DNA of 64,000 bases from Chloroflexota bacterium (lineage in GTDB: Bacteria > Chloroflexota > Anaerolineae > UBA4142 > SHND01): positions 13,917-77,916 of the forward strand of contig JACQWQ010000042.1 of assembly GCA_016209205.1 (NCBI GenBank), given 5' to 3'. Shown in pieces: positions 20,368-46,479 of the stretch. How positions within the stretch are numbered: the first letter of the stretch is position 1; each line of letters begins with the position of its first letter. The translations under genes and the position numbers were made by a program. Under the pieces are notes generated by a model. The model made no database searches and was not told the DNA's origin. It saw only the letters and a program-made list of their open reading frames with translations.

Positions 20368-20913
20368 TTAGATCGGGTAAAAGGGCAAAACCAAAAGCAC
20401 GATCAACGAGCCAAAACACAGAAACGGCGCATAAGGCAATTCTGTTTTCGCGGTCCCGCGTTTTGTGAGCAGCATCGTTACGGCGACTGCGCCGCCGCCC
20501 AATACCGCGATTAACAAAACCCACACGATATTGGGAAAACCAAACAAGAGCCCCAGTAATGTGACCAACTTGATGTCACCGCCGCCAAGTTGATGCGGAT
20601 GTACGATGGACGTAAGCGCAAAGGGCACAAACGCAAAAAGCGCCCCGGCTAACCGCATCCATGCCGTTCCGGGCTGGAGCAAAACCAACAACAGCGTGAG
20701 CGCGCCAAGCGGCAGCAAGAGCACATTCGGAATTTTCTGTGTCTGCCAATCCACGTACGAAATCACGAGAAATGCCAACACCAACGCGGCTTGCATGAAA
20801 AACTGCCAGGTCAACTCAAAGCGTCCCAACAGCAAGAGCAGCAGCAAGACGCCAATCAGTCCGAGATTCCGAAACATTTCGGTTTTGTGCGTAGACATGT
20901 TCATAGGATTCAC
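20368..20913 (-). CDS. A24 prepilin / pre-archaellin peptidase (short PibD/ArlK/TadV-like form)
   Basis: Two catalytic Asp motifs (SYVDWQTQKIPN, LGGGDIKL), multiple TMs, and a C-terminal LPYAPFL. Confidence 0.88.
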   Translation of the reverse strand: MNPMNMSTHKTEMFRNLGLIGVLLLLLLLGRFELTWQFFMQAALVLAFLVISYVDWQTQKIPNVLLLPLGALTLLLVLLQPGTAWMRLAGALFAFVPFALTSIVHPHQLGGGDIKLVTLLGLLFGFPNIVWVLLIAVLGGGAVAVTMLLTKRGTAKTELPYAPFLCFGSLIVLLVLPFYPI

Positions 20914-21914
20914 CTCTGTGGGCGCGCGGACGGACGCGTCGTAAAGAAATTCTTGAGCTGTTTCACCATCTCGTGCGCACGTGTGAGCAGCTCGTCAATC
21001 GGAAGGTCAGGCAAATTTTTGACCAGCGCTTCGAGCGCCGACAACGAAACATCCTCTTCTTCAAACAAATTCGCCAAATCTTTTAACAGATTTTTATCTT
21101 CGGCTGCTTTTTCATCTCCCTCTTCTTCTGTGTCAATGACCGGTGCAGCGGGCTGGAGCGGCGGTAATGTCGCGCCCTCACTCGGCTCTCCGGCATCGGG
21201 CGCACCGATGACCGTATCGGGAGAAATTTGGTTCGCATCGTCCACAGCACCCGGCACAACATCCTCACCCAACCCCTCTGGCGTTCCGTCCGCGTCGTCG
21301 CTCCGCGCCCCTGCCGTGCCCAACTCGAGCGTGTCCGGGATGCCCAAGGCAGCCGCTTCGGCGCGACGTGCCTGTTCCAATTGTCGTTCGCGCCACGCGG
21401 GCAAGACGACCAGCCAAACTCCAATGATCAGCGGCAGCAACGATGTCACCACCGCAAGAATCAACAGCGGTTGCGTCAGCCCGACGACGAACGGCGAATC
21501 GGGCGGCGCCAGATCCAAAGCTTGCGCCAACGCGGCGACGTGTGTCCGCGTCTCACTGCTTTTGCTTTCCTGCAGAATGGCAGCCATCAACGTCGTCAAT
21601 TCAGCCGGATCATAACGGCTCAATTGCGCCCGGGCTTGCAGCGCATCGAGCGTGTACCAATACTTGTCGGCAACGGCAATGATGTACTGGCGCGTTGCCG
21701 AGCTATTCTGCGAAACCGGCAGCAGCGCGCCGAGGTCAAACCGAAACAAATACGAACCAATGAGCCCACCGACCATCAAGCCCAACGCCAAAAAAATCAT
21801 GAACTGTGCGAGCGCGTTGAGACGCGACGGCGCAGGACGCCCCGGCGCGCGCGGCGACGGCACAGACGCTTGCCATGCCGTCACAAAACGAGAAAGCGGA
21901 TGAAGCGCGGACAT
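20910..21914 (-). CDS. Hypothetical bitopic membrane protein with acidic low-complexity tail
   Basis: Two TM segments, a helical domain between them and a D/E/P/G-rich C-terminus; starts 2 nt after the arlJ stop. Confidence 0.65.
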   Translation of the reverse strand: MSALHPLSRFVTAWQASVPSPRAPGRPAPSRLNALAQFMIFLALGLMVGGLIGSYLFRFDLGALLPVSQNSSATRQYIIAVADKYWYTLDALQARAQLSRYDPAELTTLMAAILQESKSSETRTHVAALAQALDLAPPDSPFVVGLTQPLLILAVVTSLLPLIIGVWLVVLPAWRERQLEQARRAEAAALGIPDTLELGTAGARSDDADGTPEGLGEDVVPGAVDDANQISPDTVIGAPDAGEPSEGATLPPLQPAAPVIDTEEEGDEKAAEDKNLLKDLANLFEEEDVSLSALEALVKNLPDLPIDELLTRAHEMVKQLKNFFTTRPSARPQR

Positions 21915-21916
21915 TT

Positions 21917-23410
21917 TCACATCACCATGAGGACCAGATTTGGAATGAACATATAACACAGCCCCGCAGCGAACAACAGAATTGCCAAATAATAAGTTAT
22001 CTTGATGAGATGCGCGCCTTCGCTGGCGACGATGGCAAACGCGCTAATGACGGCGAGAATCAAAATCATGCCAATGACCAGCATCCCCAAAAATTCCACT
22101 TGCGGCGCATTGAAATTGAACATATTGCCCAAGCCGAGCGCCGCCGCGGACGCGCCGCCTTCTTCCAATTCTTTAGCCGCTTCCGTCAGCTTGAGCGCGA
22201 ATTGCCCCAAGATGCCGAGCAAGAAAATCATTAATCCCGACATGACCGTGTGCATGACAATGACGAGCCACGAAAACGTTGCCGCCACACCGCGCCGCTG
22301 CTGCCGCAGCATTGCCGTGCGCATCGAATACTCGCTGGTGAGCTTGCCGATGCGCTCCGGGTCGCCGCCCAGATTGATTGCTTCGTAAAAAATACCAATC
22401 ACTTGCTGCACGAGTTTGCTGCCGGTTTCAGCCCCAAAACGTTCCCAACACAGTCGCGGTTTACCGAATGCCTTGAGGCGCAAATCCAATTTGTGAATGT
22501 CGGGCTCGAGCGCGGGAAACGAATCTATCTTGATGCTTGCCAACGCTTCTGTCAACGTCGTGCCGCGCGAAGTTGCCGTACCGCCAAGTGAGCGCAGGAA
22601 CGAACTAATCTCGTCATCTTTGCGCACCGTCTCTTTGTCCGCGCGTCGCGCCGTCCAACCGACGGGGAGAAGCAGCGCAGCGGAAGCCAGCAGCACGTAC
22701 GTTTTGTCCATCTTGAGCGCCAACAACAGCAGCGCGGTCATGATCGCGAGGGGCACGAGGACGAAAAACAATTTACGCGCGCGTCGCTGGGCTGCCGACC
22801 CGAGGAGGAGCGGCACGCTGATTTGATCGGGCGGCGACGCGCGCAAAAGGACCCACGCGACGCCGAAACTCGCCGCCACCGCAATCATCACCATTAACAG
22901 CATGGTCGAAAGCTCGATGTTGTAAATCATCGTCGCGACCATGTTGATGATTACAATGAGCGCGGAGGAAACGGTCACCGCCGCGTACGCGTCGTTCCAT
23001 TTTTTCAGACTCTCCAAACTGCGCGTGTAATCATTCGTGTACGCTTCACCCATCACACTGGCTTCGCGTTGCAAAAAACCGGGCAGCGGTTCGCCGGAGC
23101 GCAGCGCGTCGGACAAACGCAAGAGAAAGGTTTTGACCAAATCGGGCTTGGCGGTTTCGCCGATGAGGCGCACCGCGTCGGGATAGTTGTAGCGCAAATT
23201 TTCGGCGACCTGATGGATATTGTGGAAAAAACGCGCCGGGGGACACGCCAGCTCGCGCGCGAGTTGAAACGTGCGCGCCCGCGAGATTCCGGCAGCCGCC
23301 GTCGCAGACATGTACGTCAACTGCTGAAAGAGGTCATAGCTCGTAATCTCTTCAAAATAATTTCTAATTCGATTGTTGGATGTTGCGGCTACCGTTGCCA
23401 TCGCCATCAC
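21917..23410 (-). CDS. arlJ: Archaellum membrane platform ArlJ (FlaJ)
   Basis: T2SSF-like repeats: DLFQQLTYMSATAAAGISR, LLRLSDALRSGEPL, SFLRSLGG, FYEAINLGGDPERIG; multiple TMs; follows arlI. Confidence 0.88.
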   Translation of the reverse strand: MMAMATVAATSNNRIRNYFEEITSYDLFQQLTYMSATAAAGISRARTFQLARELACPPARFFHNIHQVAENLRYNYPDAVRLIGETAKPDLVKTFLLRLSDALRSGEPLPGFLQREASVMGEAYTNDYTRSLESLKKWNDAYAAVTVSSALIVIINMVATMIYNIELSTMLLMVMIAVAASFGVAWVLLRASPPDQISVPLLLGSAAQRRARKLFFVLVPLAIMTALLLLALKMDKTYVLLASAALLLPVGWTARRADKETVRKDDEISSFLRSLGGTATSRGTTLTEALASIKIDSFPALEPDIHKLDLRLKAFGKPRLCWERFGAETGSKLVQQVIGIFYEAINLGGDPERIGKLTSEYSMRTAMLRQQRRGVAATFSWLVIVMHTVMSGLMIFLLGILGQFALKLTEAAKELEEGGASAAALGLGNMFNFNAPQVEFLGMLVIGMILILAVISAFAIVASEGAHLIKITYYLAILLFAAGLCYMFIPNLVLMVM

Positions 23411-23493
23411 CTCACTGCTATATTTTCAGTGTAACACTCGACCCACGCGCGCCTCAATACCCCGAATTGGCTAGCCGAAGCGTACTATACCGC

Positions 23494-25179
23494 TCACAAT
23501 AACTTTTGTCGCTGGGCTTGGGCAATCACGGCAAAGATTTCGTAAAAGTTCTTGAGTTTCTTTTCGAGGTGCAGGCGTTGGAAAATTTTCGCGCGGCGCT
23601 TGAGCTCGGTGTAAATCATTTTGCGCTTGAACGGCGGGATGCCGCGTTTGAGCGCGATCTTTTCTTCCAACACGAAACTGTTCATAAAGCCCGGGAACTC
23701 GAACGTGTCCGTGGCGGGATTCCAGCGAAACGCTTCGACGACCGAAAAACTTTCGGTCGTCGGATCGTAACCGACAATTTCGTTGATGCTCAAAACCCGG
23801 CGCGTCATGCCCTTGCCGGGGACTTTGACGGCGGCTTGAATCAAAACCACGTCAAGATTGTCTACGTACGAGCGCGGAATGTTGATCGGATCGCCCGTGA
23901 GACGTTGAATCAATTTTTCCACCGACGCGGCGTGAAAGGTGGATATGACGCCGTGCCCCGTCTGCATCGCTTGAAAGGCAATCGCGCCTTCGACCCCGCG
24001 AATTTCGCCGACGATAATGCGGTCGGGGCGCTGCCGCAGCGCCGCGCGCAAGAGATCGAACATCCCTACTTCACTGCCCGTATTTTCTTTGCCCGAACCG
24101 CGCGTGGTCTCGCGAATCCAATTTTTGTGCGGCACTTGAAGTTCGGGAGTATCCTCGATGCTCACGATTTTCCGGTCGGGTGGAATGAACGTCGTAATCG
24201 CATTCATCGTGGTCGTTTTACCGGAAGCCGTCGCGCCGGCGACAAACATGTTCAAACCTTCTTCGAGCGCAAAGGAGAGATATGCCGCCATCATATAGTC
24301 CATTGTGCCGAAATCCACGAGCTCGAAAACGCTCGTCGGAATGCCCATGAATTTGCGGATGGTAAAATTACTGCCGCGTTTGCTGACGTCGGTGCCATAG
24401 ACGATGTTGATGCGTGAGCCATCGGGCAGCGTCGCGTCCACGATGGGGTTGCGCACCGTGACCGGATGCTTGATCATTTCGCCGAGCCATATTACAAACT
24501 CGTCTAAATCGTCTTCGGCGGCGAAATTGGTGGTAGATTCGACGCTCTTGAAAATTTTATGCTCGACAAAGACCGGGCCCACGCCGCTGCAACTAATATC
24601 TTCAATCGCTTCGTCATACAGCAGCGGCGATAAAATCCCGTAACCGATTTTGTCGCGGTTGAGCAGGTACTTGAGCGCCTCCAATTCGCGCGCGGAAACC
24701 ACGATTTTGCCGCTCTCGCCCGTCAGCGTCGTGATCGCATCAATCGCTTTGTTCAACGCGCTGCGTTTTTCGTCGTTGTTGGCCGCCGCGCCAATTTGAT
24801 CCACATAATCCAATAAACGCGCTTCGACTTCCAGTAGAACGTGATCCAGTTGTACATTCAAATGCGGTTCGATGGGCACGTACGTATCGCGTTCACTTTT
24901 TTCATTCGGATAAATGTGAACGTACAAACCATTTTTAATCGGATAAATCAAATTGCGGCGTTCGAGATACTGCAAATCGCGTGACAGCTTCGGATAGTAT
25001 TCCGGCACGCCGATCATATTCATCGGAACGAGGTGCAAGTATTCTGACAAGAACGCGCTAGAGTCTGCGGCTTGTTGCAATGGTTTCGGCAAAACGCCGC
25101 GCAAGCTGCACCGCGCGCCATTGTCGCACGCGGGCTTGGGTTTTTCGGGCAGCTCGAACGGTAAATGTGTGGTGGTCAT
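23494..25179 (-). CDS. arlI: Archaellum motor/assembly ATPase ArlI (FlaI)
   Basis: NLIYPI...YVHIY, RDKIGYGILSPLLYD..IEDISCSG, Walker A GATASGKTT, ALRQRPDRIIVGEIRG, FQAMQTGH, STFHA. Confidence 0.93.
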   Translation of the reverse strand: MTTTHLPFELPEKPKPACDNGARCSLRGVLPKPLQQAADSSAFLSEYLHLVPMNMIGVPEYYPKLSRDLQYLERRNLIYPIKNGLYVHIYPNEKSERDTYVPIEPHLNVQLDHVLLEVEARLLDYVDQIGAAANNDEKRSALNKAIDAITTLTGESGKIVVSARELEALKYLLNRDKIGYGILSPLLYDEAIEDISCSGVGPVFVEHKIFKSVESTTNFAAEDDLDEFVIWLGEMIKHPVTVRNPIVDATLPDGSRINIVYGTDVSKRGSNFTIRKFMGIPTSVFELVDFGTMDYMMAAYLSFALEEGLNMFVAGATASGKTTTMNAITTFIPPDRKIVSIEDTPELQVPHKNWIRETTRGSGKENTGSEVGMFDLLRAALRQRPDRIIVGEIRGVEGAIAFQAMQTGHGVISTFHAASVEKLIQRLTGDPINIPRSYVDNLDVVLIQAAVKVPGKGMTRRVLSINEIVGYDPTTESFSVVEAFRWNPATDTFEFPGFMNSFVLEEKIALKRGIPPFKRKMIYTELKRRAKIFQRLHLEKKLKNFYEIFAVIAQAQRQKLL

Positions 25180-25263
25180 AGGTCGAGTAAGTGTAAATAG
25201 GCAGTTGAACTGCCGTGGGTCAACGCGCAGTCCAACTGCGCGTTGACAAGCCGAACCAGCGGT

Positions 25264-26334
25264 CTAACCCTTGACTTTGTTGATTGGAATCACGCGAATG
25301 CCCCACCCCGGCTCTACTTCAAAACTCACGATGTTGCCGGTCGTTTGTTCTGCGCCGCGCACTTTGGTCACTTCAAGCGTTTTCACCAATTTGTTGCCGA
25401 CTTCTTCGGTGCGCAGCTGCAAATGCGCGTCACACAAGGAACGGATGCGCGTGAGCAATTCGCGCGTCAGCCCGTGCGAATGCACGATTGCAATCACCGT
25501 CGTGCCATCGCCGCACAAACGTTTGCCCTCTTCAAAAAAACCGAGCACTTCTTTGTCCGACGATTGCGGAATGGAAGAGGTCAGCGAATCAATGAAAATC
25601 ATATTGCGCCCTTTTTCGCGTTTCATCGCGTTGATGAGCACCGTCGGCGCATGTTTGCCTAGCCGCGATGTTTCAATCGGATAAATGTGCAAATGGTCGA
25701 GCAGCAAATAATCCAAAATGTCGAGATTGAGAGAGCGCATTTGTTTGACCAAACTCTTGACCGAGTTTTCACTTGTAAAGAGGGAGAGTTTGTACCCATC
25801 CATCAAACAGCCGTGCATCATTTGCTGCGCGAGCACTGATTTTCCCGCGCCCGAATCGCCTTCGATAAGCGTGAGCGACCCCATGGGCACACCGCCGCCC
25901 ATCTTGTTGTCGAGATCGGGATTGCCGGTCGAAATCAGTTTCGCATTGTCGTCTTCCGGGCTGATGAGCAGCGGCTTGACTTTGCTGATGAGTTCGACGG
26001 GGTTGAACGGCTTGATGAGATAATCATCCACCGCCGATTTTGGTCCAATCTCGAGATTTTCAAGTTGATTCTCGTCGGCAATCATCAAAATGCGCTCATG
26101 GCTCGTCGCGGGATCTTTGTGCAGTGTTTTGGCAATGTCGTTACCCTTGGCGGTGGGCAGTTTGAAATCGAGAATCACCAGATTGGGTTGTTCACGACGC
26201 GCCAGCATCAGACCTTCTTTGCCATCAGCCGCCGCGAGAACGGTATAGCCGTCCTCTTCCAACGGATATTTGAGGAGCTGTACGAGTTGTGCGTCGCCTT
26301 CGATCAACAAAATCTTTTTAGTTTTGCCAGCCAT
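25264..26334 (-). CDS. arlH: Receiver domain fused to ArlH (FlaH, KaiC-like ATPase)
   Basis: N-terminal ~125 aa REC (LLIEGD, LVILDFKLP, DDYLIKPF), then ISTGNPDLDNKMGGGVP, GDSGAGKS, IFIDSLT, RIRSLCDAHLQL, LEVTKVRGA, FEVEPGWGI. Confidence 0.9.
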   Translation of the reverse strand: MAGKTKKILLIEGDAQLVQLLKYPLEEDGYTVLAAADGKEGLMLARREQPNLVILDFKLPTAKGNDIAKTLHKDPATSHERILMIADENQLENLEIGPKSAVDDYLIKPFNPVELISKVKPLLISPEDDNAKLISTGNPDLDNKMGGGVPMGSLTLIEGDSGAGKSVLAQQMMHGCLMDGYKLSLFTSENSVKSLVKQMRSLNLDILDYLLLDHLHIYPIETSRLGKHAPTVLINAMKREKGRNMIFIDSLTSSIPQSSDKEVLGFFEEGKRLCGDGTTVIAIVHSHGLTRELLTRIRSLCDAHLQLRTEEVGNKLVKTLEVTKVRGAEQTTGNIVSFEVEPGWGIRVIPINKVKG

Positions 26335-26361: not shown

Positions 26362-26772
26362 CTACTCCCCTTGCGGACGCGGCGGTGTATTGACCCACTG
26401 CGCGATTTTTTTCAAAATCAATTCTTGCAACTCTTCGACCTCATTTCCCGAACGCAGCAAAAACGCATTCGCCCCGGCAGGCAAAAATTCGCGGTCGGTA
26501 TTCGGCATGTTGCTGACGCCAATGATCAAAGCATCCGGCTTTTTCTCGCGAATCAGCTTGACGCCTTGCACCCCGTTCAAATGGTGCCCCAAATCTTTGT
26601 ACACCACGAACACGTCATAATGGAGCTCGGTCAACATCAAATCTTCGATGCAGCTGTAATCCGTCACCATCGAGTGCAAACGCCGGTGCAGGGCGCGCGC
26701 CAAGATTTCACGCGCCGCATGATCTTTGTGTATTAACGCAATTTGAAACATCTCACTGACTCCCTCATCCAA
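26362..26772 (-). CDS. Atypical (pseudo-)receiver protein
   Basis: REC fold pattern (YDVFVVYKDL...NGVQGVKLIRE..PDALIIGVS...AGANAFL) lacking the acidic pocket and the conserved Lys. Confidence 0.6.
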   Translation of the reverse strand: MDEGVSEMFQIALIHKDHAAREILARALHRRLHSMVTDYSCIEDLMLTELHYDVFVVYKDLGHHLNGVQGVKLIREKKPDALIIGVSNMPNTDREFLPAGANAFLLRSGNEVEELQELILKKIAQWVNTPPRPQGE

Positions 26773-27190
26773 TCCCCGATGCCCACAGCACCGCTTTGAC
26801 GCGCTGCACCAAATCTCTGGCTTTGACGGGCTTGGTTAAAAATTCCAGCGCGCCCGAATCAAAACCACGCAGCCGGTCCTTGACGCGCCCCGCAAATTTC
26901 CATGCCTCGTCGGTTTGCTTGTTCACATCGCCTTTTGCCGTCAACATCAACACGCCGATATTTTCCGTCGCGGGATTCGCTTTCAGGTGCCGACACACTT
27001 CGTACCCGTCAATATCCGGCATCATGATGTCGAGAATGATGAGGTCGGGGCGCATTTCTGCCGCGCGTTTCAAACCATCCTGCCCGTCATACGCCACCTC
27101 GACCTCATATCCTTCCTTTTTCAACACCGCCGCAATGATCGTCACGGTCGGGCGATCATCATCCACACACAAAATCCTGGCTTTTGCCAT
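26765..27190 (-). CDS. Single-domain response regulator (CheY-like)
   Basis: ILCVDDD, LIILDIMMP, MLTAKG, FLTKPV; extra residues after beta4. Confidence 0.9.
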   Translation of the reverse strand: MAKARILCVDDDRPTVTIIAAVLKKEGYEVEVAYDGQDGLKRAAEMRPDLIILDIMMPDIDGYEVCRHLKANPATENIGVLMLTAKGDVNKQTDEAWKFAGRVKDRLRGFDSGALEFLTKPVKARDLVQRVKAVLWASGIG

Positions 27191-29165
27191 TCGCCGCCTC
27201 CTGCGCGCGTACCTCCCAGCCCGGCGTTGCATAAAACGTGAGCACACGCTGAATTTCCTTAACCAACTGCTGCGCCAGCGCGGGCGCGTCCTGGGTTTGT
27301 CCCTTCTCCGCCAAACTTTCTAATGCTTGCCCACACTCGCGCGCGGTCGTGCCCCCCAAATTGCTCATGATCCCTTTCAGTCGGTGCGCTTGCGCTTCAA
27401 TTCGTTTCGCGTCCTTTGCCGCCAACGCATCCTGCAAGCTGTCAATTTGTGTTGGAACTTCTTGGAGCGTCAAATCCACCGCCGCGCGCAAAATATCCAC
27501 ATCGCCGCCGACGACCTCGAGCGCCTCGTGCAAATCCACCGGGCAGGTGTCCGCCTTGGTCCCGCAGGAGTTGTTGTGGACATCGTTGGCGCAGGAGTTG
27601 TACTCTGGCGTCCGCGCCATCAATTCGTCCAGCGCGCGATTCAACTCGTCAATGCGCACCGGCTTGGTCACGTAACCATCCATGCCCGCGCGCGCGCATT
27701 TTTCGCGATATTCTTGTGTCGCAAACGCCGTCATTGCAATCACCAACAAATGTCCGCCCAAAGTTTTTTCGCGTTCACGAATCGCGCGGGTCGCATCCAG
27801 CCCGTCCATTTCGGGCATCGAAATATCCATCAAGACCAAATCGAATGGTTGGCTTTGCGCGCGTGACGCTTCAAAAGCTTTGACGGCTTCTGCGCCGTTC
27901 ACCGCGAGCGTAACCGTGTGTCCCGCTTTCGAGAGCGACGAGCGCGCAATCAGTTGGTTCGTCGGGCTGTCCTCGGCGACCAAAATCCTGAGCGCACTAG
28001 CAAGTGTGCGCGCAGCAGGTTGCGGCTGCGCCTGCGCGCTGGTTTGGCGGTTGAACGGCAGCGTAATGAGGAACGCGCTGCCCTGCCCCGACGCGCTGGT
28101 CACGGTAATTTGCCCTTGCATAAATGTGACGAGCTGCTTTGCGAGCGCAAGCCCCATACCGCCTCCGCCGAAACGTCGCGTCGAAGAAGTATCTGCCTGC
28201 TGAAACGGCTCAAAGATGGTCTCGATTTTTTCTGCGGGAATGCCGATGCTTGTATCACGCACACGAATCTGTAGTTCTACTGCATCGTCGCTTATTTTCG
28301 CTGCACTCACGTCAATCGTAATTTCGCCGCGTTCCGTAAATTTGTACGCATTATCCGTGAGGTTCGTCAATACCTGCCGCAGCCGCTTCGCGTCGCCGAT
28401 CAACGCGGTCGGTGTGCCGACCGCGATTTGGGCGCTAAAGCCGAGACCCTTTTCCTGCGCGCGCGGTTTGACGATGTCGCTGCAGCGCTGCAAGGGTTCC
28501 TCCAAGTCAAAGGGTTTGTGCTCGAGGGTCAGCTGCCCGGCTTGAATTTCCGAAAATTCAATAACGTCGCCAATCAAGCTCCGCAAAGTGTTGGACGATG
28601 CTTTGATCGTATTGAGGAAACTCAGCTGTTCCTGCGCCAACAGCGTGCCCGCTAACAGTTCGGACATGCCCACGATTTCGTGCAGCGGCGTGCGCAGCTC
28701 GTGGCTCATGTTTGCCAACAGCTCGCTCCGCGCGCGTTTCGCGTCCGCGAGTTCGCGCTGTGAATCGTCGAGCGCAGGCGTATCGGTTGGCTCGGGGTGA
28801 CCGCGCCCGTTCGACCACTCTTGCACCTTCGCCATCAACGCTTGCGGGGCAATCGGAGCAGACAGAAAACAATCCACGCGTTCGCCCGAAGGCAACTGCG
28901 CCAATTCGTCCGCGCTGCCGAGCATGACAACCGGAATGCGGTTCGTTTTTGGATCGAGTTTTAGTTTGCCGTACGTTTCATAACCGTTCACGCCGTGCAG
29001 GATCGTGTCGAGCAAAATCAAATCGGGCGGATCGCTTGCCGCCTGCTGCAAGCCCGCCGCGCCGTCGGTCGTCACGCGCACGCGGAAACCCGCTTGCTCC
29101 AAAATCAGGCGCGTGCGTAGTGCTTCCGTGCGGCTATCGCGAATGACAAGAATCTTGGTGCTCAT
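27159..29165 (-). CDS. Cytoplasmic hybrid histidine kinase (REC-HisKA-HATPase-REC-HPt)
   Basis: ANMSHELRTPL, QVLTNLTDNAYKFT, GMGLAL, LVAEDS...LMDISMP...TKP, AHRLKG; no TM or sensor domain. Confidence 0.9.
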   Translation of the reverse strand: MSTKILVIRDSRTEALRTRLILEQAGFRVRVTTDGAAGLQQAASDPPDLILLDTILHGVNGYETYGKLKLDPKTNRIPVVMLGSADELAQLPSGERVDCFLSAPIAPQALMAKVQEWSNGRGHPEPTDTPALDDSQRELADAKRARSELLANMSHELRTPLHEIVGMSELLAGTLLAQEQLSFLNTIKASSNTLRSLIGDVIEFSEIQAGQLTLEHKPFDLEEPLQRCSDIVKPRAQEKGLGFSAQIAVGTPTALIGDAKRLRQVLTNLTDNAYKFTERGEITIDVSAAKISDDAVELQIRVRDTSIGIPAEKIETIFEPFQQADTSSTRRFGGGGMGLALAKQLVTFMQGQITVTSASGQGSAFLITLPFNRQTSAQAQPQPAARTLASALRILVAEDSPTNQLIARSSLSKAGHTVTLAVNGAEAVKAFEASRAQSQPFDLVLMDISMPEMDGLDATRAIREREKTLGGHLLVIAMTAFATQEYREKCARAGMDGYVTKPVRIDELNRALDELMARTPEYNSCANDVHNNSCGTKADTCPVDLHEALEVVGGDVDILRAAVDLTLQEVPTQIDSLQDALAAKDAKRIEAQAHRLKGIMSNLGGTTARECGQALESLAEKGQTQDAPALAQQLVKEIQRVLTFYATPGWEVRAQEAANGKSQDFVCG

Positions 29166-38939: not shown

Positions 38940-38945
38940 ACTGTT

Positions 38946-39271: not shown

Positions 39272-39551
39272 TAAAGATGAAATTGCCTTCTGGACCAAAA
39301 AACAAATCGGAACTTGCCACTGGTTTGATCGGGAGTGCGCCGATATTCTTTGCCCAAATCACGACCTCTGCGCCTGAATTGGTCGCATGAATGATTTCGA
39401 CCTGGGTCTTGATGCGTTCGTCATAGCGCCCCTGCATGTTGGCAATCGCCTCGCCGCTTTGCGTGATGGCGGGAAAAATAGAATTAAAGACAAACACCGC
39501 CGAAATCACCCCGGCCATGACGAGTAACGCCGTCACAATCGTCTTATCCAA
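39258..39551 (-). pseudogene. arlG: ArlG (FlaG)-like protein, 3'-truncated
   Basis: GAGGAGG RBS + TTG start; TM helix, RIKTQVEII, WAKNIG, DLFFGPEG; stop lies inside the MITE and no downstream continuation is visible. Confidence 0.7.
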
Positions 39552-40245
39552 TTTTCGCCTCCTCAATCAATGCCAATGCCTCTTGGATGTCCGTCGGGCG
39601 GCCGAGAATCACGTCGAGCTGCGTGATGACCTGGATCACTTCGCGCATCCCGACCGTGTCTGGCGCAGTCCGGCGATTGAGCGGCGCAATGCGGATGAGT
39701 ACGTCCTGCAAATCGGGCGACAGAATTTTTTGTTTTGCCGCTTGCTGAATCAACGGCTTGAGGCGTTCCAAGCCAATTTGCGCCGCGCCGTTCAATGCCC
39801 ATTCGAGCAGCCGGCTCATTTGGCTCGTAGTTTCCGGCGACAGTGTTTCGACTTGGGTGGAACGAACCTCGTCGAGCGTGACTTGGCGCACTTTGGGTGC
39901 GGGCGTTTCGGTTCGGGCCGGTTCCGGTTGCGGCGCGCTGTTGCCCGGCTCACTCACACGCACGGCGAGAGGTTGATTCTGTTCCGCCGCGCCCCGCGCC
40001 GCATCAAGCCCATCGGGCTTGGCCGCGCGGCTTGCGCCCGAATCGCCATCGGGTCCCGACGGACGCGCGCGTAACGCTTCGACGGTTTGGACAGCGGACT
40101 CGGGCACCCCGGTTTCCTCGGTGCGCAGCGCAGGATAGTAATGCACCAAAATTTGCTCTTGGATATCCAAGAGCGTGCGTTGAATTTCGCTTTTGAGCAC
40201 TTTCATCTCGTATTCAAGGGCTTTGACGCGTTGTTCGAGTTCCAC
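39544..40245 (-). CDS. Coiled-coil protein with possible ArlD/E-like C-terminal domain
   Basis: GAGGAGG RBS + GTG; N-terminal coiled coil, low-complexity linker, and a helical C-domain (LLEW...IGLERL...ILSPDLQDVL). Confidence 0.7.
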   Translation of the reverse strand: MELEQRVKALEYEMKVLKSEIQRTLLDIQEQILVHYYPALRTEETGVPESAVQTVEALRARPSGPDGDSGASRAAKPDGLDAARGAAEQNQPLAVRVSEPGNSAPQPEPARTETPAPKVRQVTLDEVRSTQVETLSPETTSQMSRLLEWALNGAAQIGLERLKPLIQQAAKQKILSPDLQDVLIRIAPLNRRTAPDTVGMREVIQVITQLDVILGRPTDIQEALALIEEAKIG

Positions 40246-40278: not shown

Positions 40279-43200
40279 TCAGTGCAGGCCTGACTGCGCG
40301 CGCAACAGCGCTACCAGTTTTTGGATGGACGGAACCTCTTCGCTGGGCGCGGTGCGCATGGCAATCTGTGCGGCGCTGAGCGCCTTTGGGAAATCCCCGG
40401 TTTGTTGATAGAGCAATGCCAGGTTCGTGTGCGCCTCCCACTGATACGACGAGTTGGGCGCCAGTTCGATATAGTTCCTGTACTCTTGAATAGCTTGAGC
40501 AAACATCCCTTGTCGATAGTACACAAACGCCAATTTGCTGTGCGCCTCTGCGAATTGGGGCTGCAAAGCAACCGCTTGCTGGTACGCTTCACTCGCTTTG
40601 GCGAAATCCTTTTTCGTCGCGTATGCCTTGCCTAAATACAAATAGGTTTCAGCAAGTTTGTTGTCGCGCGCGCGCGACTCGCCCAATTTCTGCAGCGCGG
40701 CATCGGAATCGTTGCCATAGACCAAATCAAAGTCAGCTACTTCGTTCCACAAGCGCGCGTCGTTCGGGTTGAGGCGAATGGCTTGGCTATAGAGTTGCCC
40801 GGCGCGCTCGACAAGTTGGGTTTTAGCCGGCGTGTTGACTGGTAATTCGGGAAGGTATAACCGCGCCAGATTAAGGGTGTGATCCACGTACAAGGGGTTG
40901 AGCTCGCGCGCGCGCAAAAGCATCGCCTGCGCCGCATAAAGCAAATCTGTGCGACCTAACGCGGTGATCGCGCGCGGGTCCAACAAGAGGACTTGTTCGA
41001 CAGAAATCTGCGCGTCGTATGCGGCATTAGCGGCGTGGCGCGGTGTCGCATTCGCGCTCGCCGTGTTGGCTTTTTCCACAAGTGCTCTGCCCAGCACCCG
41101 ATAGTATTGATCCGCCGCGGGTGACAGGTGCAGCGCGCGCTGTCCAATCACAATTGCCGCGTCCTGCCGCCCTTGATCCGCGAACGTTTTACCCAGCCGA
41201 TAAGCCATGTCGCTGCGGGTCGGGTTCAGGTCAAAGAGCGTGACCCACATTCCGGTCACAACGATCAGCGGGACAAGGGCTGCCAAGGACCACTTGTTGG
41301 CAATCCGGGGCATCGTCGCCGCCCCGGACTCGATGGCGATACCAATAGCCGTGCACAGGATTAGCGCCGAGGCGCTCACCATAAAGTAATCCACCACGCC
41401 GACTGTTCGATCAAAAAAAATGAGCGCGTCGGGCGTGCTGATGCCCGATCTTGGAATGGAGGCGAGCGTAGAGAGCTGAAGCGCCAAGCCCAACCCAAAA
41501 CAAATCGCCAACCCCGCTGAGAGCGCGGCAACCCACATCAAGCCACGGCGTCCATCTCCCTGAAAGCTGAGTATTCGGGCGCGGAGCATTTCGGACCAGA
41601 CAACCAAAGTAGACAGCAGCCACACCACCGCGAGCAGAGCCAGCACGACGTACGAAGTTATTCCGAGCACTGGGTTAAAAGAGAGGGCTTGCCACAAAAT
41701 TCCTGGCGCGTCGGTTGTGCCCTCTCGAATCGTCACGAACTCAAAAATCAAGATCGCCAGAATGAGGGCAACGATCAGGGCATAACTCGAAACGGAACCG
41801 ATCCATGTTGGAACGCGGGACAGGGATCGCGCGGCTTGTAGATGCGGGATAGAGATCCGATCAAATTGCAGCCGCTTGGCGACGACGACCAGCATTCCGG
41901 CAAATATCCAAAACAGCGTTTGCGTCGCGATCATATTGGGACCAAATTGACTTTCGATATAGTGCGCAACCAAGCCAGCCAGTAACGCAGCGAGCAAAAT
42001 TTGCTGGGGGCGATGCGTCATCGCGGGTGGCGCGTCCTGCCGCAACGCAAACCACGCGAGGTAAAGCGATACCGCCGCAAGATTGCTCGCGGGCAAAATC
42101 AGACCAAGATATTTGGCTTGATTCAAGAGCAGCGCGCCCAGCCCACCGCTCAACATCAGAGCGACCCACAGTCCGACGAACAAATTGCGCGTGCGGTTTG
42201 TCGGCGCCAACCCCAAGCCGCGCAGCGCCAACCCGAAAAGGCACAGCCATAGAAATTGATGCGCGCCAAAACCCCCCAAACCGGTCGTCACCAGAATGTC
42301 CCACGTCTCGTTGTGACTTCGATCGGTTTGCAACAGCGGACTGTACGGATCAGGCAAAGCGAGTTGGCGATAGATGAGCACTAACGTATCCGCGCCATAC
42401 CCGACGAGGGGTCGGACTACGTTCAGCGAATCTGGCGCGCCCATAGGAAATTGAATCGGTGCGTGCGGCAGGACAAGGCGCGCCACATTCTCCCAAGTGT
42501 ATAAACGAAATCCGGCAGTGCTGTCTGCCAACTGTCCCAATCTGCCGAATCCGGGCAGCGTGCGCAATCCTTGGAGTGGTGTATTTGGCAAGTTGAAAAT
42601 GAGCAAAAATGCGAGTCCGGCAAAACCCAAGCCGATGGCGCCCAACACCATCCGCCGCCGCCCCAAGACGAGCGCCAAGCACAAAAGAAAGAACACCATT
42701 CCACCGAACATTCCCAACCAGGGGCCGCGGCTGCCTGACAGAAAAATCGCAACGAACTGCGCGATGGCGATCACACTGTAACTCGCCGCGCGCGAAATGT
42801 CGGCAGCGCGCGTGTCCGCCTCTTTTTCGATCAAACAAGAGCGCAGCGCGATGACAATCTGTCCGAGTGTGAGCGCAAAGACCATGATCAGATAGCCAGC
42901 CAGGAAAATCGGATTGCCCAGCTGTGCGCCCACGCGTCCGTCGAATTCTACGGTCCACGCCAACGGATCGAGACCACTGCGCTGGAGGATGCTGTAGAGC
43001 GCAATCGGGAAACTGGGGAGAATGATCGCGGCGATCAGCCGGTCGAGTTGTTGGCGCGTGCGTAGCCCTTGCGCCAGCATCACAAACATGACCACGTAAG
43101 TAAGGAATCCGTGCAAGCCCAGCGGGCGCAGGTACGAACCAAAGAGCGCGGTGTGCAGATCAATCGCGGTGAGGGTGGTGAGCAAATACATGCCGACAAG

Positions 43201-43461
43201 GAGCAAGACCGCGAGCGCCAGCGGCGAGTGCAGCGGTAGCGGCGCTTGGGTACGCCGTACGCGGCGCTCCTCAAGCCACTTGACAAGCCACATTGCCACC
43301 ATAGTGACGGCAAGCATGCGCAAAATCGCGAGTTTGCCTTCGTGCATCACCGCGCTCGTATAGCCGTTAAAGAACAAGGGCGCGAGTACAACCGCAGCGA
43401 GCCATTCCGCTTCAATGATTTTGTCGCAGACCACGCTCAATTTACTTGTCACTGGACCCAC
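40279..43461 (-). CDS. O-antigen ligase / O-oligosaccharyltransferase-like membrane protein with C-terminal TPRs
   Basis: GNPIFLAGY, SGSRGPWLG, RSHNETWD Wzy_C-type motifs; many TMs; TPR tail (AETYLYLGKAY, AEAHSKLAFVY). Confidence 0.8.
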   Translation of the reverse strand: MGPVTSKLSVVCDKIIEAEWLAAVVLAPLFFNGYTSAVMHEGKLAILRMLAVTMVAMWLVKWLEERRVRRTQAPLPLHSPLALAVLLLVGMYLLTTLTAIDLHTALFGSYLRPLGLHGFLTYVVMFVMLAQGLRTRQQLDRLIAAIILPSFPIALYSILQRSGLDPLAWTVEFDGRVGAQLGNPIFLAGYLIMVFALTLGQIVIALRSCLIEKEADTRAADISRAASYSVIAIAQFVAIFLSGSRGPWLGMFGGMVFFLLCLALVLGRRRMVLGAIGLGFAGLAFLLIFNLPNTPLQGLRTLPGFGRLGQLADSTAGFRLYTWENVARLVLPHAPIQFPMGAPDSLNVVRPLVGYGADTLVLIYRQLALPDPYSPLLQTDRSHNETWDILVTTGLGGFGAHQFLWLCLFGLALRGLGLAPTNRTRNLFVGLWVALMLSGGLGALLLNQAKYLGLILPASNLAAVSLYLAWFALRQDAPPAMTHRPQQILLAALLAGLVAHYIESQFGPNMIATQTLFWIFAGMLVVVAKRLQFDRISIPHLQAARSLSRVPTWIGSVSSYALIVALILAILIFEFVTIREGTTDAPGILWQALSFNPVLGITSYVVLALLAVVWLLSTLVVWSEMLRARILSFQGDGRRGLMWVAALSAGLAICFGLGLALQLSTLASIPRSGISTPDALIFFDRTVGVVDYFMVSASALILCTAIGIAIESGAATMPRIANKWSLAALVPLIVVTGMWVTLFDLNPTRSDMAYRLGKTFADQGRQDAAIVIGQRALHLSPAADQYYRVLGRALVEKANTASANATPRHAANAAYDAQISVEQVLLLDPRAITALGRTDLLYAAQAMLLRARELNPLYVDHTLNLARLYLPELPVNTPAKTQLVERAGQLYSQAIRLNPNDARLWNEVADFDLVYGNDSDAALQKLGESRARDNKLAETYLYLGKAYATKKDFAKASEAYQQAVALQPQFAEAHSKLAFVYYRQGMFAQAIQEYRNYIELAPNSSYQWEAHTNLALLYQQTGDFPKALSAAQIAMRTAPSEEVPSIQKLVALLRAQSGLH

Positions 43462-43598: not shown

Positions 43599-44249
43599 CT
43601 ATTGGAGATCCATTACATCTTCGAGCGTGGGCGGGGTCAGGCGTTGCAGAATCAGGACTGCCCCTGACGGCGGTTTGACTTCCACGTTGAACGACGTGTT
43701 CTCGGCAAGTGGGTTTTCCAAGGCGGCAGTGCTGTCCAGCGGGACCCAGACTTTGAACAATTCGCGGTCTTCGAGCATGTTATTGCCGTCCGAGTAGCCG
43801 ATCGAGCAGACGTTCCAGGTCGTGATCAAAACGTTTTGTGTCGAGTCACGGGCCGAAATATTAATCACGTTGCCGGGCGGAACAGCCGGCACGGTCACCA
43901 CGTTATCCGCCGCAGTGGTTGTGCAAGCTGCAATCGTTGCACCACTGGGAGGGGTAAAGTCAATCGGCTGACCACCGGCGACATTGGCCAGCGTGAAAGA
44001 AACACCATCCACTTCTGCGCCCGCCGATGAAAAGGCAATGACGCTGCCCTTGAGTTCCACCGAACCGCGCACTTGCGCCAAACCGGAGAACGCGGCTTCT
44101 TTGCTGCGCTCGGTCATGAACGTGCCAGTGCTCAAAATCGTAAAGGCAAACACGGCTGCGACCACGACGAATGCAATCAAAATGATTGCGGTTTCCAATG
44201 CGGTGACGCCGCGTTCGTCCTTGTACCATTGTGCAAACATGTTTTTCAT
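43599..44249 (-). CDS. arlB: Archaellin ArlB (FlaB)
   Basis: AAGGAG RBS; class III signal peptide KDERG|VTALETAIILIAFVVVAAVFAF, the archaellin N-terminal signature with Glu at +5. Confidence 0.95.
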   Translation of the reverse strand: MKNMFAQWYKDERGVTALETAIILIAFVVVAAVFAFTILSTGTFMTERSKEAAFSGLAQVRGSVELKGSVIAFSSAGAEVDGVSFTLANVAGGQPIDFTPPSGATIAACTTTAADNVVTVPAVPPGNVINISARDSTQNVLITTWNVCSIGYSDGNNMLEDRELFKVWVPLDSTAALENPLAENTSFNVEVKPPSGAVLILQRLTPPTLEDVMDLQ

Positions 44250-44798: not shown

Positions 44799-45344
44799 CT
44801 AGAATGATTTGGTTCGCAGATCCAACACCGCGCGGAGCGCCAAACCGGCAACGGCGACCAGCAGTGCCAGCGTCACCAGCAGCCACGCGGCGGGCATTAC
44901 GGTATTGATCAAGGCGCTGAGCAAAACCAAACAAGTCAAAACCAGTAACAGTCCGGGACGGGCGCGCACGACTTTGAGCGCATTCTGCCACGACACCTTG
45001 CGCCATTCGCGTTCTTCTTGCATCAAAAGCAACGCGAGCGGATACAATTGCAGCAGGAGCCACACGAATGCGATCACGAGCCACAAGGCGCGCAGCCACG
45101 TCAAAACAACGGGGCTGAGTGCGAGGGCTTGCTGCACCGGCGCGACGAGCGACGCGTTGCCCAAGAGCACGACCGCCATCAACAGATTCACCAAAGCGAG
45201 GAACCACGCGGCGCGATTCCAATTACGCGGCGGCGCGGGTTTTTCGGGCAGCGTCGCGGCGATTTCGACGAGCGTTTGCCGAATTTCGGTCTTGAGTTCC
45301 TTGACCTCTTTTTCCAGTTCTGCCACACGTGCTTCCAGTTCCAT
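44799..45344 (-). CDS. Hypothetical membrane protein with N-terminal coiled coil
   Basis: GGAGG RBS; about 4 TM segments; first 28 aa are 17/28 identical to the N-terminus of the 39544-40245 protein. Confidence 0.75.
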   Translation of the reverse strand: MELEARVAELEKEVKELKTEIRQTLVEIAATLPEKPAPPRNWNRAAWFLALVNLLMAVVLLGNASLVAPVQQALALSPVVLTWLRALWLVIAFVWLLLQLYPLALLLMQEEREWRKVSWQNALKVVRARPGLLLVLTCLVLLSALINTVMPAAWLLVTLALLVAVAGLALRAVLDLRTKSF

Positions 45345-45573
45345 ACGCGCCTCCCTTAAATAACCTACCCCCCTACCCCCTCCCTACAAGGGAAGGGGAG
45401 ATTTTCATCCCACTGCGGGTGCGCCGCAAGGTAGTAACGAATTCATTCGTCCGCGCAACCCGTAGTAACGTGCGATGTATTCCCATCGCCTCATTCGTCA
45501 GTCAGTATAAGATTTCCCGCGCGCCGCTCTCTTTTAGTTTCATTGCAAAAGCATTCGCGGTCGGTGTAGACCC

Positions 45574-45676
45574 AGACCTGACAGGTTTTAACCGCGAATG
45601 TTGTGGGCGACGCATTCGCGATGTATGGCAGCAGCTGCGGTTCGTGAAGCGGGTGGCGTAAAAACCTGTCAGGTCT
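45574..45676. repeat. REP-like inverted pair AGACCTGACAGGTTTT / AAAACCTGTCAGGTCT within a REP-rich spacer (45360-45680)
   Basis: Perfect 16-bp IR; neighbouring GTAG-tagged and CCCCTCCC...GGGAAGGGG palindromes. Confidence 0.8.
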
Positions 45677-45681
45677 CGCGG

Positions 45682-46479
45682 TCAAGTCGCCGCAAAGTAA
45701 TAGCCGCGCCCCCGCACCGTATGAATCAATTTCGGCGCGTCGGGCGACGGTTCCAATTTTTGGCGCAGTCGGAAAATGCTCGAACGAATGACGCTCTCGA
45801 CCGTCCACTTGTCCATTCCGTTGTAACCCAACGCGACATGCGCCAATTGCGCGCACGTCAGCACATGATTTGGTTTTTCCATCAACGCGCTCAGCAGCGC
45901 CACTTCGCCTTCGGTCAATTCCACGGCGAGCGGCGGCTTGGTCTGGAGCGTCGCCACGCGCTTTTCACGGTCCAACTCAAGCCAACCCAATTGCCTCTCG
46001 TCCACCGGTTCGGCGGCAGGCGGTTCGGGCTCGCTCTCCAATTCGGACATGACGTTGCGCACCATCGCCAACAAATGTTCCTGCCGCGCTTGCCGGGCGC
46101 GCATTTCGAGCGCGCGGCCCACCGAACGAACCAAGTCCGCGTCGGGACACGGCTTGAGCAAATAATCGAAAACGTTCGCGTGAATTGCCGCAATCGTGCT
46201 GTCAATCGTCGGATGCGCGGTGAGCACGATAATGAGCAGCGCCGGATCGAGCGCGCGCGCGCGCTGCAACAGCTCGCGTTCGTTCATGCCGAGATGAAAC
46301 GGGTCAAGGAGCAAGAGTGCATACTTGCGCGAGTGTAAACATTGCAGCAGCTCGGCGCCGGAAGAGGCCTGGTCAATTTCATGGCCGTGCTCGCGCAGCG
46401 CGTGCACACAAACACCGCGCACCGGATTATCTGCATCGGCGATCAAAAATCGGGATTCAAGGAAAGCAGTAGATGGCAT
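45682..46479 (-). CDS. OmpR/PhoB-family response regulator
   Basis: REC (LLLLDP, DYLLKP) plus winged helix (LTEGEVALL, IFRLRQKLE, IHTVRGRGY). ATG 46479 preferred. Confidence 0.88.
   Translation of the reverse strand: MPSTAFLESRFLIADADNPVRGVCVHALREHGHEIDQASSGAELLQCLHSRKYALLLLDPFHLGMNERELLQRARALDPALLIIVLTAHPTIDSTIAAIHANVFDYLLKPCPDADLVRSVGRALEMRARQARQEHLLAMVRNVMSELESEPEPPAAEPVDERQLGWLELDREKRVATLQTKPPLAVELTEGEVALLSALMEKPNHVLTCAQLAHVALGYNGMDKWTVESVIRSSIFRLRQKLEPSPDAPKLIHTVRGRGYYFAAT

Follow-up and report, generated by a model that had tools for sequence, protein, structure and literature searches.

An ACF-like chemosensory block embedded in a Chloroflexota archaellum operon, and a possible CheF-free route to its motor

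By what route, if any, do sensory signals reach the archaellum motor of Chloroflexota? The question was left by the 2025 work that described Chloroflexota archaella and their horizontal origin from arl2-type Methanotecta, reported CheF to be absent from the phylum, and postulated another coupling component (PMC12488501). Here, we take it up with a 64,000-nt stretch of contig JACQWQ010000042.1 (hereafter the window), which derives from a groundwater metagenome and belongs to an uncultured metagenome-assembled genome (MAG). The host is a Chloroflexota (Anaerolineae-like) bacterium, and a chemosensory module resembling the alternative cellular function (ACF) class, with a Frz/Wsp-type core, is inserted together with a His-Asp phosphorelay in its arl2-type archaellum operon. 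We propose, at odds only a little better than even (a probability of about 0.55), that this ACF-like array and its relay steer the ArlH/ArlI motor through a stand-alone receiver (REC) protein, REC2, and a receiver fused to ArlH (REC-ArlH), bypassing CheF.

Gene identities were taken from Pfam, NCBIfam and PDB searches and are collected in Table 1. The co-oriented block occupies positions 20368-46479 of the minus strand and begins with the ATG of an OmpR-type regulator at 46479. It continues with a coiled-coil/transmembrane (TM) protein, ArlB, a Wzy_C protein with tetratricopeptide repeats (TPRs), an ArlD/E-like candidate, ArlG and ArlF. After ArlF come CheW, CheR-TPR, a second CheW, a methyl-accepting chemotaxis protein (MCP), CheA-REC, CheB and the stand-alone receiver REC1. 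These are followed by a hybrid kinase of REC-HisKA-HATPase-REC-Hpt architecture (Hpt, histidine phosphotransfer), REC2, a pseudo-receiver (pseudo-REC), REC-ArlH, ArlI, ArlJ, a membrane protein and an A24 peptidase. An earlier note on this DNA had listed such a gene set on one strand with the che block inside the arl operon, and all of the listed genes are indeed present.

Eleven che and phosphorelay genes lie between arlF and arlH, and most of them overlap or are separated by 4-32 nt. Counted from arlF as far as the peptidase gene, the spacing runs from -32 to +89 nt, with a 443-nt gap 5' of the MCP gene as the sole exception; the first cheW starts 4 nt past the arlF stop, REC-arlH starts 27 nt past pseudo-REC, and five gene pairs of the block overlap, the REC1 start overlapping the cheB stop by 4 nt. 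There is no break in GC content across the block. Scans for consensus promoters and terminators returned the same counts as shuffled sequence and are uninformative either way, and Rfam gave no match in the window. Positions 20300-40200 are covered by Logan contigs of two runs from the same groundwater study, at a uniform depth of about 10.5x, and the arlF/cheW and pseudo-REC/REC-arlH junctions each fall within a single independent Logan contig. The juxtaposition of arl and che genes is confirmed as real, and the gene set is that of a complete arl2-type archaellum with an embedded che block.

One gene of the archaellum set, arlG, is interrupted in the window. Its product is 59-65% identical to the 152/153-aa ArlG of two close relatives (L011/L012 in the numbering of our locus survey), over residues 1-91/92 only, and its 3' end is replaced by a high-copy stretch; contigs of the correct depth carry 173 nt across the joint 39152->39277 in place of the 124 nt of the window. 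Two Logan contigs (L081/L082) encode an intact 152-aa ArlG. The high-depth stretch at the point of truncation and the intact protein in the Logan contigs rule out a pseudogene. The truncation is an assembly artefact and not biology, and since L081/L082 carry intact ArlG, the organism has a complete archaellum gene set.

The small ORF that the earlier note had placed between cheW and mcp found no support as a gene. This 76-aa open reading frame (ORF; 35279-35509) has no family match and no homologue in syntenic loci; its sole match, at 39% identity, lies at an unrelated position in L006. A conserved 88-95-aa protein of three related loci (L084, L085, L088) is absent from the window.

To which chemosensory class does the block belong? 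An ACF pathway is marked by CheR-TPR and by multidomain response regulators (REC-HK, REC-Hpt, REC-AAA and others) (PMC3447774). The window has CheR-TPR, two multidomain regulators (REC-HisKA-HATPase-REC-Hpt and REC-ArlH), and a CheA-REC that lacks P2, an architecture typical of the F3, F5, ACF and type IV pilus (Tfp) classes and so not exclusive to ACF (PMC10782961). Its CheA has a single Hpt domain, an insertion of about 56 aa in the P3 hairpin relative to Thermotoga maritima CheA, and a C-terminal REC with the canonical residues D-D-D-T-K; the CheA-REC architecture is common to all of the best 120 homologues, and the Hpt His is kept in 14/14. By sequence, the receptor is of the 40-heptad (40H) class and not 44H, because it aligns without gaps over 327 aa with the Pseudomonas putida aromatic acid chemoreceptor (6s18), differs from Tsr by two symmetric 14-aa insertions, and has a C-arm of 140 residues, or 20 heptads, counted from the hairpin Glu.

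44H receptors and CheC/CheD are associated with F1 systems. The window shows none of the F1 features, which are CheC/CheD, a CheA without REC, a plain CheR, a 44H receptor and, in archaea, CheF. As the earlier note had seen, no CheF, CheC or CheD domain is present in the non-overlapping ORFs of at least 100 aa in the 64-kb window (Pfam, E<=1e-4), and the che set of the window is likewise without CheX, CheZ or CheV. That note had named an F1-class CheA as the outcome that would speak against it, and its proposed check of heptad class and CheA type gave a 40H receptor and CheA-REC. Judged by these hallmarks only, we call the set ACF-like, with Tfp as a possible alternative, and not F1.

Several known systems resemble parts of this arrangement. 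Frz of Myxococcus xanthus is an ACF-type system that controls reversals of the type IV pilus and gliding motors. Like the window, it has two CheW-type couplers, CheR-TPR (FrzF), CheA-REC (FrzE), CheB (FrzG), several stand-alone or multi-REC response regulators, and an output motor with an ATPase of the PilB/ArlI family. Its receptor is cytoplasmic and its output falls on the MglA/MglB/RomR polarity module, whereas the window has a transmembrane receptor, the intervening REC-HisKA-HATPase-REC-Hpt kinase, and last receivers on or beside ArlH. Tfp systems usually have a CheA with several Hpt domains. The single Hpt of the window CheA and the lack of any PatA-type regulator in the window speak against that class, as does CheR-TPR, an ACF marker; the likeness to Tfp systems such as Pil-Chp of Pseudomonas and Pix/Tax of cyanobacteria lies in a CheA-REC without P2 and a type IV filament as target. 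The extended P3 of the window CheA also matches the long dimerisation domains noted in Tfp CheA of Chloroflexota and cyanobacteria (PMC10782961).

Pseudomonas Wsp shares an MCP, two CheW, CheR-TPR (WspC), CheA-REC (WspE) and CheB (WspF) with the window (PMC3447774). The block has no GGDEF domain and thus no WspR-type REC-GGDEF output; its outputs are receivers and a relay kinase in a motility operon. Of the label "Wsp/ACF-like" given in the earlier note, the ACF part is borne out by the hallmarks, while Wsp is too specific for a pathway that appears to end in a His-Asp-His-Asp relay. The euryarchaeal Che-archaellum systems of Halobacterium and Haloferax have the same motor parts (ArlB/F/G/H/I/J and, for the window, a probable ArlD/E-domain protein), a Che array adapted by CheR/CheB beside the motor genes, and ArlH as docking point (PMC7534055). 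Unlike these F1 systems, the window lacks CheF, CheC and CheD, has a CheA-REC without P2, CheR-TPR and a 40H MCP, and adds a hybrid kinase/Hpt relay and a receiver fused to ArlH.

The genes between CheB and ArlI would form the output side. REC1 has the acceptor Asp57 in 45/45 matched homologous segments. All matched homologues of the soluble hybrid kinase keep the relay residues, namely the HisKA His (23/23), the Asp of the C-terminal REC (24/24) and the Hpt His (22/22). REC2 is equally constant, with Asp57 in 60/60 and Lys109 in 50/50 of the homologous segments matched in the loci. Pseudo-REC has lost its catalytic residues (H, K and G at the D12, D13 and D57 positions); its orthologues in L087 and L089 are 46-49% identical.

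REC-ArlH consists of a receiver (residues 1-122), a short linker and a KaiC-like ArlH domain (133-352), with FlaH 4YDS as its best PDB match (6.9e-33). An AlphaFold2 model (mean confidence score, pLDDT, 74) confirms the two domains: the receiver has a (beta-alpha)5 fold, the other domain is RecA-like, and the linker between them (123-135) is of low confidence. The packing of the domains in the model is not reliable. At D12, D13, D57, T87 and K109 the window receiver reads E, G, D, A and K, so that Asp56 and Lys108 are kept. Across a family set of 117 full-length cluster representatives (at least 71% identity), an E-x-D motif and the Lys hardly vary, the Lys of Walker A and the Asp of Walker B do not vary at all, and the acceptor Asp is present in 88/117. 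On this pattern REC2 is more likely than the fused receiver to be the phosphorylated output; the ArlH-fused REC may be its docking partner and, with Asp56 in the window organism, may serve there as a second acceptor.

Not every fusion of a receiver to a KaiC-like domain is archaellar. Two such proteins (P0253, P0302; 31-40% identity) are encoded in loci outside any archaellum context (L090, L091), one of them within a two-component/Hpt cluster with a second KaiC-like gene, and because these distant fusions lack arlI/arlJ nearby, membership of the archaellar REC-ArlH family has to be read from genomic context as well as architecture. The REC-ArlH architecture may have come from such fusions. 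In L029 and L032 (10.0-11.8 kb), a REC-ArlH-like gene with the acceptor Asp changed to Gly is followed by a plain ArlH and then ArlI, which may be a duplication stage before the fused copy replaced the plain one.

Is the embedding peculiar to this MAG? A genome scan with a REC-ArlH alignment gave 80 species-level loci, onto which the window proteins were mapped, and CheA-centred loci were read as well; a scan of metagenome contigs with CheR-TPR returned a single 1.5-kb contig and was uninformative. The loci fall into five groups. Plain ArlH is found in L042-L080 (Dehalococcoidia and several Anaerolineae-labelled MAGs), in the order ArlB, ArlD/E-like, ArlG, ArlF, ArlH, ArlI, ArlJ, and ArlF often has a long C-terminal extension there. 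In a second group, ArlF is followed by REC2 and REC-ArlH (e.g. L020, L036, L038, L040, L041). In a third, a 135-aa Hpt protein stands between ArlF and REC2 (L028, L030, L034, L035, L039), with hybrid kinases upstream of arlB. The fourth group, of Anaerolineae-type and Ardenticatenaceae MAGs, has a complete che block between arlF and REC2. Its order is that of the window throughout in L088 (DYJA01000017), which reads Wzy-TPR, ArlD/E-like, ArlG, ArlF, CheW, CheR-TPR, CheW, MCP, CheA-REC, CheB, REC, hybrid kinase, REC, REC-ArlH, ArlI, ArlJ, membrane protein and A24. An Ardenticatenaceae MAG (L086) has the whole order starting at ArlF, and in L002-L005, L007-L009, L013, L016, L084, L085 and L087 it is partial, within contig or flank limits; the stretch from MCP to ArlJ is seen in L002-L004, L007-L009, L013, L016, L084, L085 and L087. 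The fifth group consists of L011 and L012, whose REC-ArlH is 78% identical to that of the window and in which arlF runs straight into REC-arlH.

The space between arlF and REC2 is thus empty, or is taken by an Hpt protein, with hybrid kinases encoded at another place in the locus, or by a whole che block. Among about 40 REC-ArlH loci, REC2 precedes REC-ArlH, usually directly, in most of those whose contig reaches that far. ArlI identity among che-bearing loci is 65-76%; a rough ArlI neighbour-joining tree places most of these loci together within the REC-ArlH group and nests L011 and L012 among them. The sequences indicate that the che block stayed in the arl operon while ArlI diverged to about 65%, with occasional loss or non-acquisition. 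The earlier note had offered a survey of relatives as a way to refute it, and in many relatives (the fourth group and L089) the che block turned out to be linked to arl genes.

Some loci carry further genes at this point. In L089 (CAZYSK010000002.1, an Anaerolineales MAG), positions 1-4677 hold an F1-like set (CheA without REC, CheC, CheD, a 118-aa CheY, CheB, and CheR without TPR) directly upstream of an ACF-like block (CheW-CheR_TPR-CheW-MCP-CheA_REC...) that leads into REC-ArlH, so that two classes share one locus. Within the che block, L085 has GAF-GGDEF-EAL and GGDEF genes (7169-9523 and 17144-17887) and L088 has GAF-HD and metallo-beta-lactamase-fold genes (4916-6070 and 6749-7414); these extra genes hint at cyclic-nucleotide cross-talk. 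The long ArlF of plain-ArlH lineages (279-387 aa in L042, L052, L059 and L067, at about 8.8-10.0 kb in each) has a C-terminal extension built of repeated modules of about 90 aa with the motif ...FTQADIDxGLLxY..., and this extension is absent from REC-ArlH lineages.

A further piece of the motor bears on how signals could dock. The protein at 39544-40245, which the earlier note had listed as a coiled-coil protein, does have an N-terminal coiled coil, followed by a disordered linker and a conserved W-domain. That label is unspecific, and the protein is probably an ArlD/E homologue. Its gene stands between arlB and arlG in most surveyed loci, and four homologues have sub-threshold matches to PF04659 (Arch_fla_DE; best E 0.0023, 18.3 bits vs a 21-bit cut-off), all in the same conserved domain and at overlapping profile positions (21-65 to 16-85 of 96). 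PF04659 gave no match to the window protein itself, and a profile search with the ArlD/E-like domain in a set of 5.8 billion proteins and in PDB returned nothing. The probable identity agrees with the report that most Chloroflexota encode arlCDE homologues (PMC12488501). On sequence grounds, the archaeal docking platform has thus probably been kept and the CheF adaptor not.

What we propose for the coupling builds on gene content, order, tight spacing, cross-species conservation and catalytic residues, all of which are observed; we infer from them which way the phosphate flows, what its final target is and what behaviour would result, and the same applies to the words "rewired" and "native" that the earlier note used of motor and pathway. 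Signals would bind the transmembrane 40H receptor with its four-helix-bundle (4HB) sensor domain, and the array with two CheW and CheA-REC would set the level of CheA~P, with CheR-TPR and CheB providing adaptation by methylation. CheA~P would phosphorylate its own REC, CheB, REC1 and the N-terminal receiver of the hybrid kinase, which would relay the phosphate from His to Asp to His, onto its Hpt. Hpt~P would in turn phosphorylate REC2 and, in the Asp56-bearing window organism, probably also the ArlH-fused receiver. REC2~P and/or the REC of ArlH could alter ArlH oligomerisation or the contact with ArlI (and the ArlD/E-like protein), and such a change in ArlH/ArlI could act on motor start, stop, switching or assembly. 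The route would replace the archaeal CheY-CheF-ArlCDE path.

Support for this relay comes from the embedding, the conserved order, the constant REC2/REC-ArlH output and the retained relay residues. ArlH is a sensible target because archaeal ArlH autophosphorylation governs its oligomeric state and ArlI binding and is needed for archaellation and motility (bioRxiv 10.1101/2021.03.19.436134), and because ArlCDE, the receivers of CheY-CheF, dock on the motor through ArlH (PMC7534055). More tentatively, and at odds that we place somewhat below even, a large Chloroflexota lineage may be steered without CheF, with REC2 and the ArlH-fused receiver as a phospho-dependent switch on the ArlH/ArlI ring and the interval from arlF to REC2 as a socket for modular inputs.

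A number of observations weigh against the proposed steering route. The ArlH-fused receiver is atypical in the window, with Gly at D13 and Ala at T87. Its acceptor Asp is missing in 29/117 family representatives; in che-linked loci it is present in 10/20 and replaced by G, E or A in the other 10/20, a count that includes some repeat fetches of the same contigs. Given these losses, the fused REC cannot, by its sequences, be the terminal acceptor in all of the loci. In the hybrid kinase of the window, the N-terminal REC (residues 1-125) has Arg at D12 and Ala at K109, while Lys109 is kept in 19/19 homologues; this looks like strain-specific degeneration, and the loss of Lys109 and Asp12 makes the step from CheA to the kinase doubtful in the window organism. 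The che block is absent from the close relatives L011 and L012, and ACF-type systems usually control outputs other than motility. The CheF negative covers the 64-kb window, with the rest of the genome outside it. Finally, the organism is an uncultured MAG, and archaellum function has been shown only for Litorilinea aerophila (PMC12488501).

Other explanations have to be set against these data. The che/relay block might control archaellum biogenesis or expression in place of rotation, via the OmpR-type regulator at the operon head or by gating ArlH-dependent assembly. Typical outputs of ACF pathways are gene expression, development or biofilm (PMC3447774; PMC10782961), and some of these systems control development or flagellar biosynthesis; archaeal archaellation requires ArlH; L. 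aerophila archaellation is tied to growth phase and cell shape (PMC12488501); and the regulator that heads the operon recurs in L011, L017 and L024. As che-less loci such as L011 have that regulator too, it is not che-specific, and the relay ends beside a motor protein, not a DNA-binding protein. CheR/CheB adaptation and a 40H array would also be costly for a slow on/off decision, and we consider control of biogenesis unlikely. We hold it to be still less probable that the block is a passenger, that is, an ACF- or Tfp-type system with another output such as type IV pili, gliding, cyclic di-GMP or aggregation. The GGDEF, EAL, HD and metallo-beta-lactamase-fold genes within the blocks of L085 and L088 would fit a passenger, and so would the missing block of L011 and L012. 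PMC3447774 adds that, in the survey of Wuichet and Zhulin, the Chloroflexi che systems were all ACF, in organisms without flagella. Against a passenger stand the junction spacings of 4 nt or overlaps, an embedding kept across two family-level groups while ArlI falls to about 65% identity, and the other phosphorelay inputs that fill the same slot upstream of REC2/REC-ArlH.

An archaeal-type F1 system could instead have arrived with the archaellum and signal to ArlCDE through CheY, with a CheF encoded elsewhere. F1 is the commonest class in archaellated Chloroflexota (58/226 genomes in a May 2026 preprint, bioRxiv 10.64898/2026.05.11.724246), an ArlD/E-like protein is probably present, and L089 has its CheA/CheC/CheD/CheY/CheB/CheR set beside the ACF-like block. 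The window CheA, however, shares 54% identity across its full length with the CheA-REC paralogue of L089 and 42% (kinase core) with the CheC/CheD-linked one. With the receiver on CheA, the missing P2, CheR-TPR, the 40H MCP, the absence of CheC/CheD from the window and the reported absence of CheF from Chloroflexota (PMC12488501), an F1 origin seems very improbable to us. As for a chimera of two organisms, the local mis-assembly at 39153-39276 might invite the suspicion, but the uniform depth in two runs, the junctions within single contigs and the same order in many unrelated MAGs already refute it, and we give it next to no weight.

How much of this was known? L. aerophila is the nearest published case, a Chloroflexota archaellum cluster with pilN/LysM neighbours like the window, and with a lone response regulator ("CheY", disputed) among its arl genes (PMC12488501). 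The May 2026 preprint reports ACF-type CheA in 24/226 archaellated Chloroflexota, places the ACF-type CheA of Aggregatilinea lenta on the arl contig in a system "downstream of the archaellum region", and favours F1 as the archaellum partner (bioRxiv 10.64898/2026.05.11.724246). Both organisms are set apart from the window by their published descriptions only. The earlier note had taken the coupling to be uncharacterised. In part it was anticipated, since the co-occurrence of ACF and archaellum had been reported in that preprint; our literature search found no mention of a che block placed between arlF and arlH, of a hybrid kinase/Hpt relay or of a REC-ArlH fusion. What appears to be new is the embedding itself, together with the modular input slot and the REC2/REC-ArlH output.

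The remaining archaellum genes complete the picture of the operon. Orthologues of the OmpR-type regulator head arl clusters in L011, L017 and L024, che-less loci included. The coiled-coil/TM protein after it has an N-terminus paralogous to that of the ArlD/E-like protein, with the motif MELExRVxxLExE...I common to both. ArlB has a class III, type IV-pilin-like signal sequence at its N-terminus. The Wzy_C+TPR gene directly follows arlB, a position kept in L011, L012 and L088; this polytopic protein of O-antigen-ligase/PglL type is a candidate archaellin O-oligosaccharyltransferase, because the archaellin of L. aerophila is probably O-glycosylated (PMC12488501, where no Wzy_C-type gene is mentioned). 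The stator genes have the arl2-type order G-F. ArlJ scores 346.8 bits with NF004703, under the cut-off of 570. An A24 peptidase gene lies within 3-5 kb downstream of arlJ in most of L002-L067, unlike the signal peptidase that is stated to be outside the archaellum locus (PMC12488501).

The spacer of about 215 nt between arlG and arlF is the only long non-coding stretch between the arlB-distal genes and the che block. At 38944-39011 and 39060-39125 it holds a near-perfect palindrome of 69 nt (self-match 87% over 69 nt), directly upstream of the arlF start, and a GC-rich inverted repeat just ahead of the palindrome. No match to the structure was found in 80 related loci. The palindrome could be a regulatory or processing structure.

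Outside the operon, a small ORF and genes for PilN-like and LysM proteins (46824-50458, plus strand) diverge from the arl genes. The two proteins are likely envelope anchoring partners; pilN and LysM-pilO also adjoin the L. aerophila archaellum cluster (PMC12488501). Next to them, at 50670-54932 (plus strand), are a dCache-HAMP-PAS-PAS-GAF-HisKA_3 sensor kinase, a LuxR-type response regulator and a stand-alone REC, which could be a further regulatory input to the locus. Unrelated to the archaellum is a plus-strand cluster at 7523-16412. Its genes, for a molybdopterin oxidoreductase (1058 aa), a 4Fe-4S dicluster subunit (689 aa) and an ethylbenzene-dehydrogenase-like haem subunit (PF09459 2.6e-31), resemble those of an enzyme from the type II DMSO-reductase family.

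Table 1. Features of the archaellum block and its neighbours in the window, in the order of the operon, with supporting matches (E-values unless bits are given)
Feature	Position	Strand	Evidence or remark
OmpR-type response regulator (REC + Trans_reg_C)	45682..46479	-	PF00486 1.8e-16, PF00072 5.7e-14
Coiled-coil + multi-TM protein	44799..45344	-	no family match; homologues in L011, L017, L024
Archaellin ArlB	43599..44249	-	PF01917 4.2e-24; TIGR02537 N-terminal domain 6.4e-8
Wzy_C polytopic membrane protein + C-terminal TPRs	40279..43461	-	PF04932 6.7e-9, many TPR families
Probable ArlD/E-domain (ArlCDE-family) protein	39544..40245	-	position; sub-threshold PF04659 in homologues
arlG, 5' two-thirds	39258..39551	-	NF052591 weak 2.4e-3; 97-102 aa in window
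High-copy 124-nt stretch replacing arlG 3' end	39153..39276	.	word depth 350-1000x vs ~10x flanks
ArlF, stator component	38427..38939	-	NF052590 1e-8; PF01917 1.6e-7; PF22201 FlaF_Ig-like 3.9e-4
CheW 1	37892..38422	-	PF01584 1.2e-28
CheR methyltransferase + TPR	36264..37895	-	PF01739 9.2e-51, PF03705; TPR families at residues 380-515
CheW 2	35608..36258	-	PF01584 5.2e-33
Transmembrane chemoreceptor 4HB-HAMP-HAMP_2-MCP	33095..35164	-	PF12729 5.8e-35, PF00015 1.6e-34
CheA-REC hybrid kinase	30729..33062	-	Pfam: Hpt, dimerisation, HATPase, CheW-like P5, C-terminal REC
CheB methylesterase (REC + CheB_methylest)	29603..30655	-	PF01339 1.7e-62, PF00072 2.1e-20
REC1, stand-alone CheY-like receiver	29187..29606	-	PF00072 8.5e-23; D-D-D-T-K canonical
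Soluble hybrid kinase REC-HisKA-HATPase-REC-Hpt	27159..29165	-	Pfam domains
REC2, stand-alone canonical receiver	26765..27190	-	PF00072 4.4e-27; ~14-aa insertion after beta4
Pseudo-receiver	26362..26751	-	PF00072 weak 5.1e-4
REC-ArlH fusion	25264..26334	-	NF004723 FlaH 248.8 bits (cut-off 194); PF00072 2.5e-17
ArlI motor ATPase	23494..25179	-	NF058587 647 bits (cut-off 550), E 2.3e-194
ArlJ membrane platform	21917..23410	-	NF004703 1.6e-103; PF00482 1.9e-10
Membrane protein, acidic C-terminal tail	20910..21914	-	no family match; homologues after arlJ in many REC-ArlH loci
Short A24 prepilin/pre-archaellin peptidase	20368..20913	-	PF01478 5.5e-15; downstream of arlJ in most loci
PilN-like (711 aa) + LysM-domain (411 aa) proteins	47238..50458	+	PF05137 1.2e-5; PF01476 2.1e-10

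For the question of how a CheF-less motor might be informed, the window and its relatives offer concrete candidates: REC2, the REC-ArlH fusion, the REC-HisKA-HATPase-REC-Hpt relay and the probable ArlD/E homologue. The loci form a natural series, from no input module through a two-component input to a chemosensory one, and give a stepwise picture of a horizontally transferred nanomachine becoming connected to host signalling. The locus also speaks against the idea that archaella are paired with F1 systems alone. If the proposal is true, a CheF-free REC2/REC-ArlH switch would be an undescribed control mode for a rotary type IV filament motor, and the Chloroflexota archaellum would be a worked example of a horizontally acquired machine wired into the signalling of its host.

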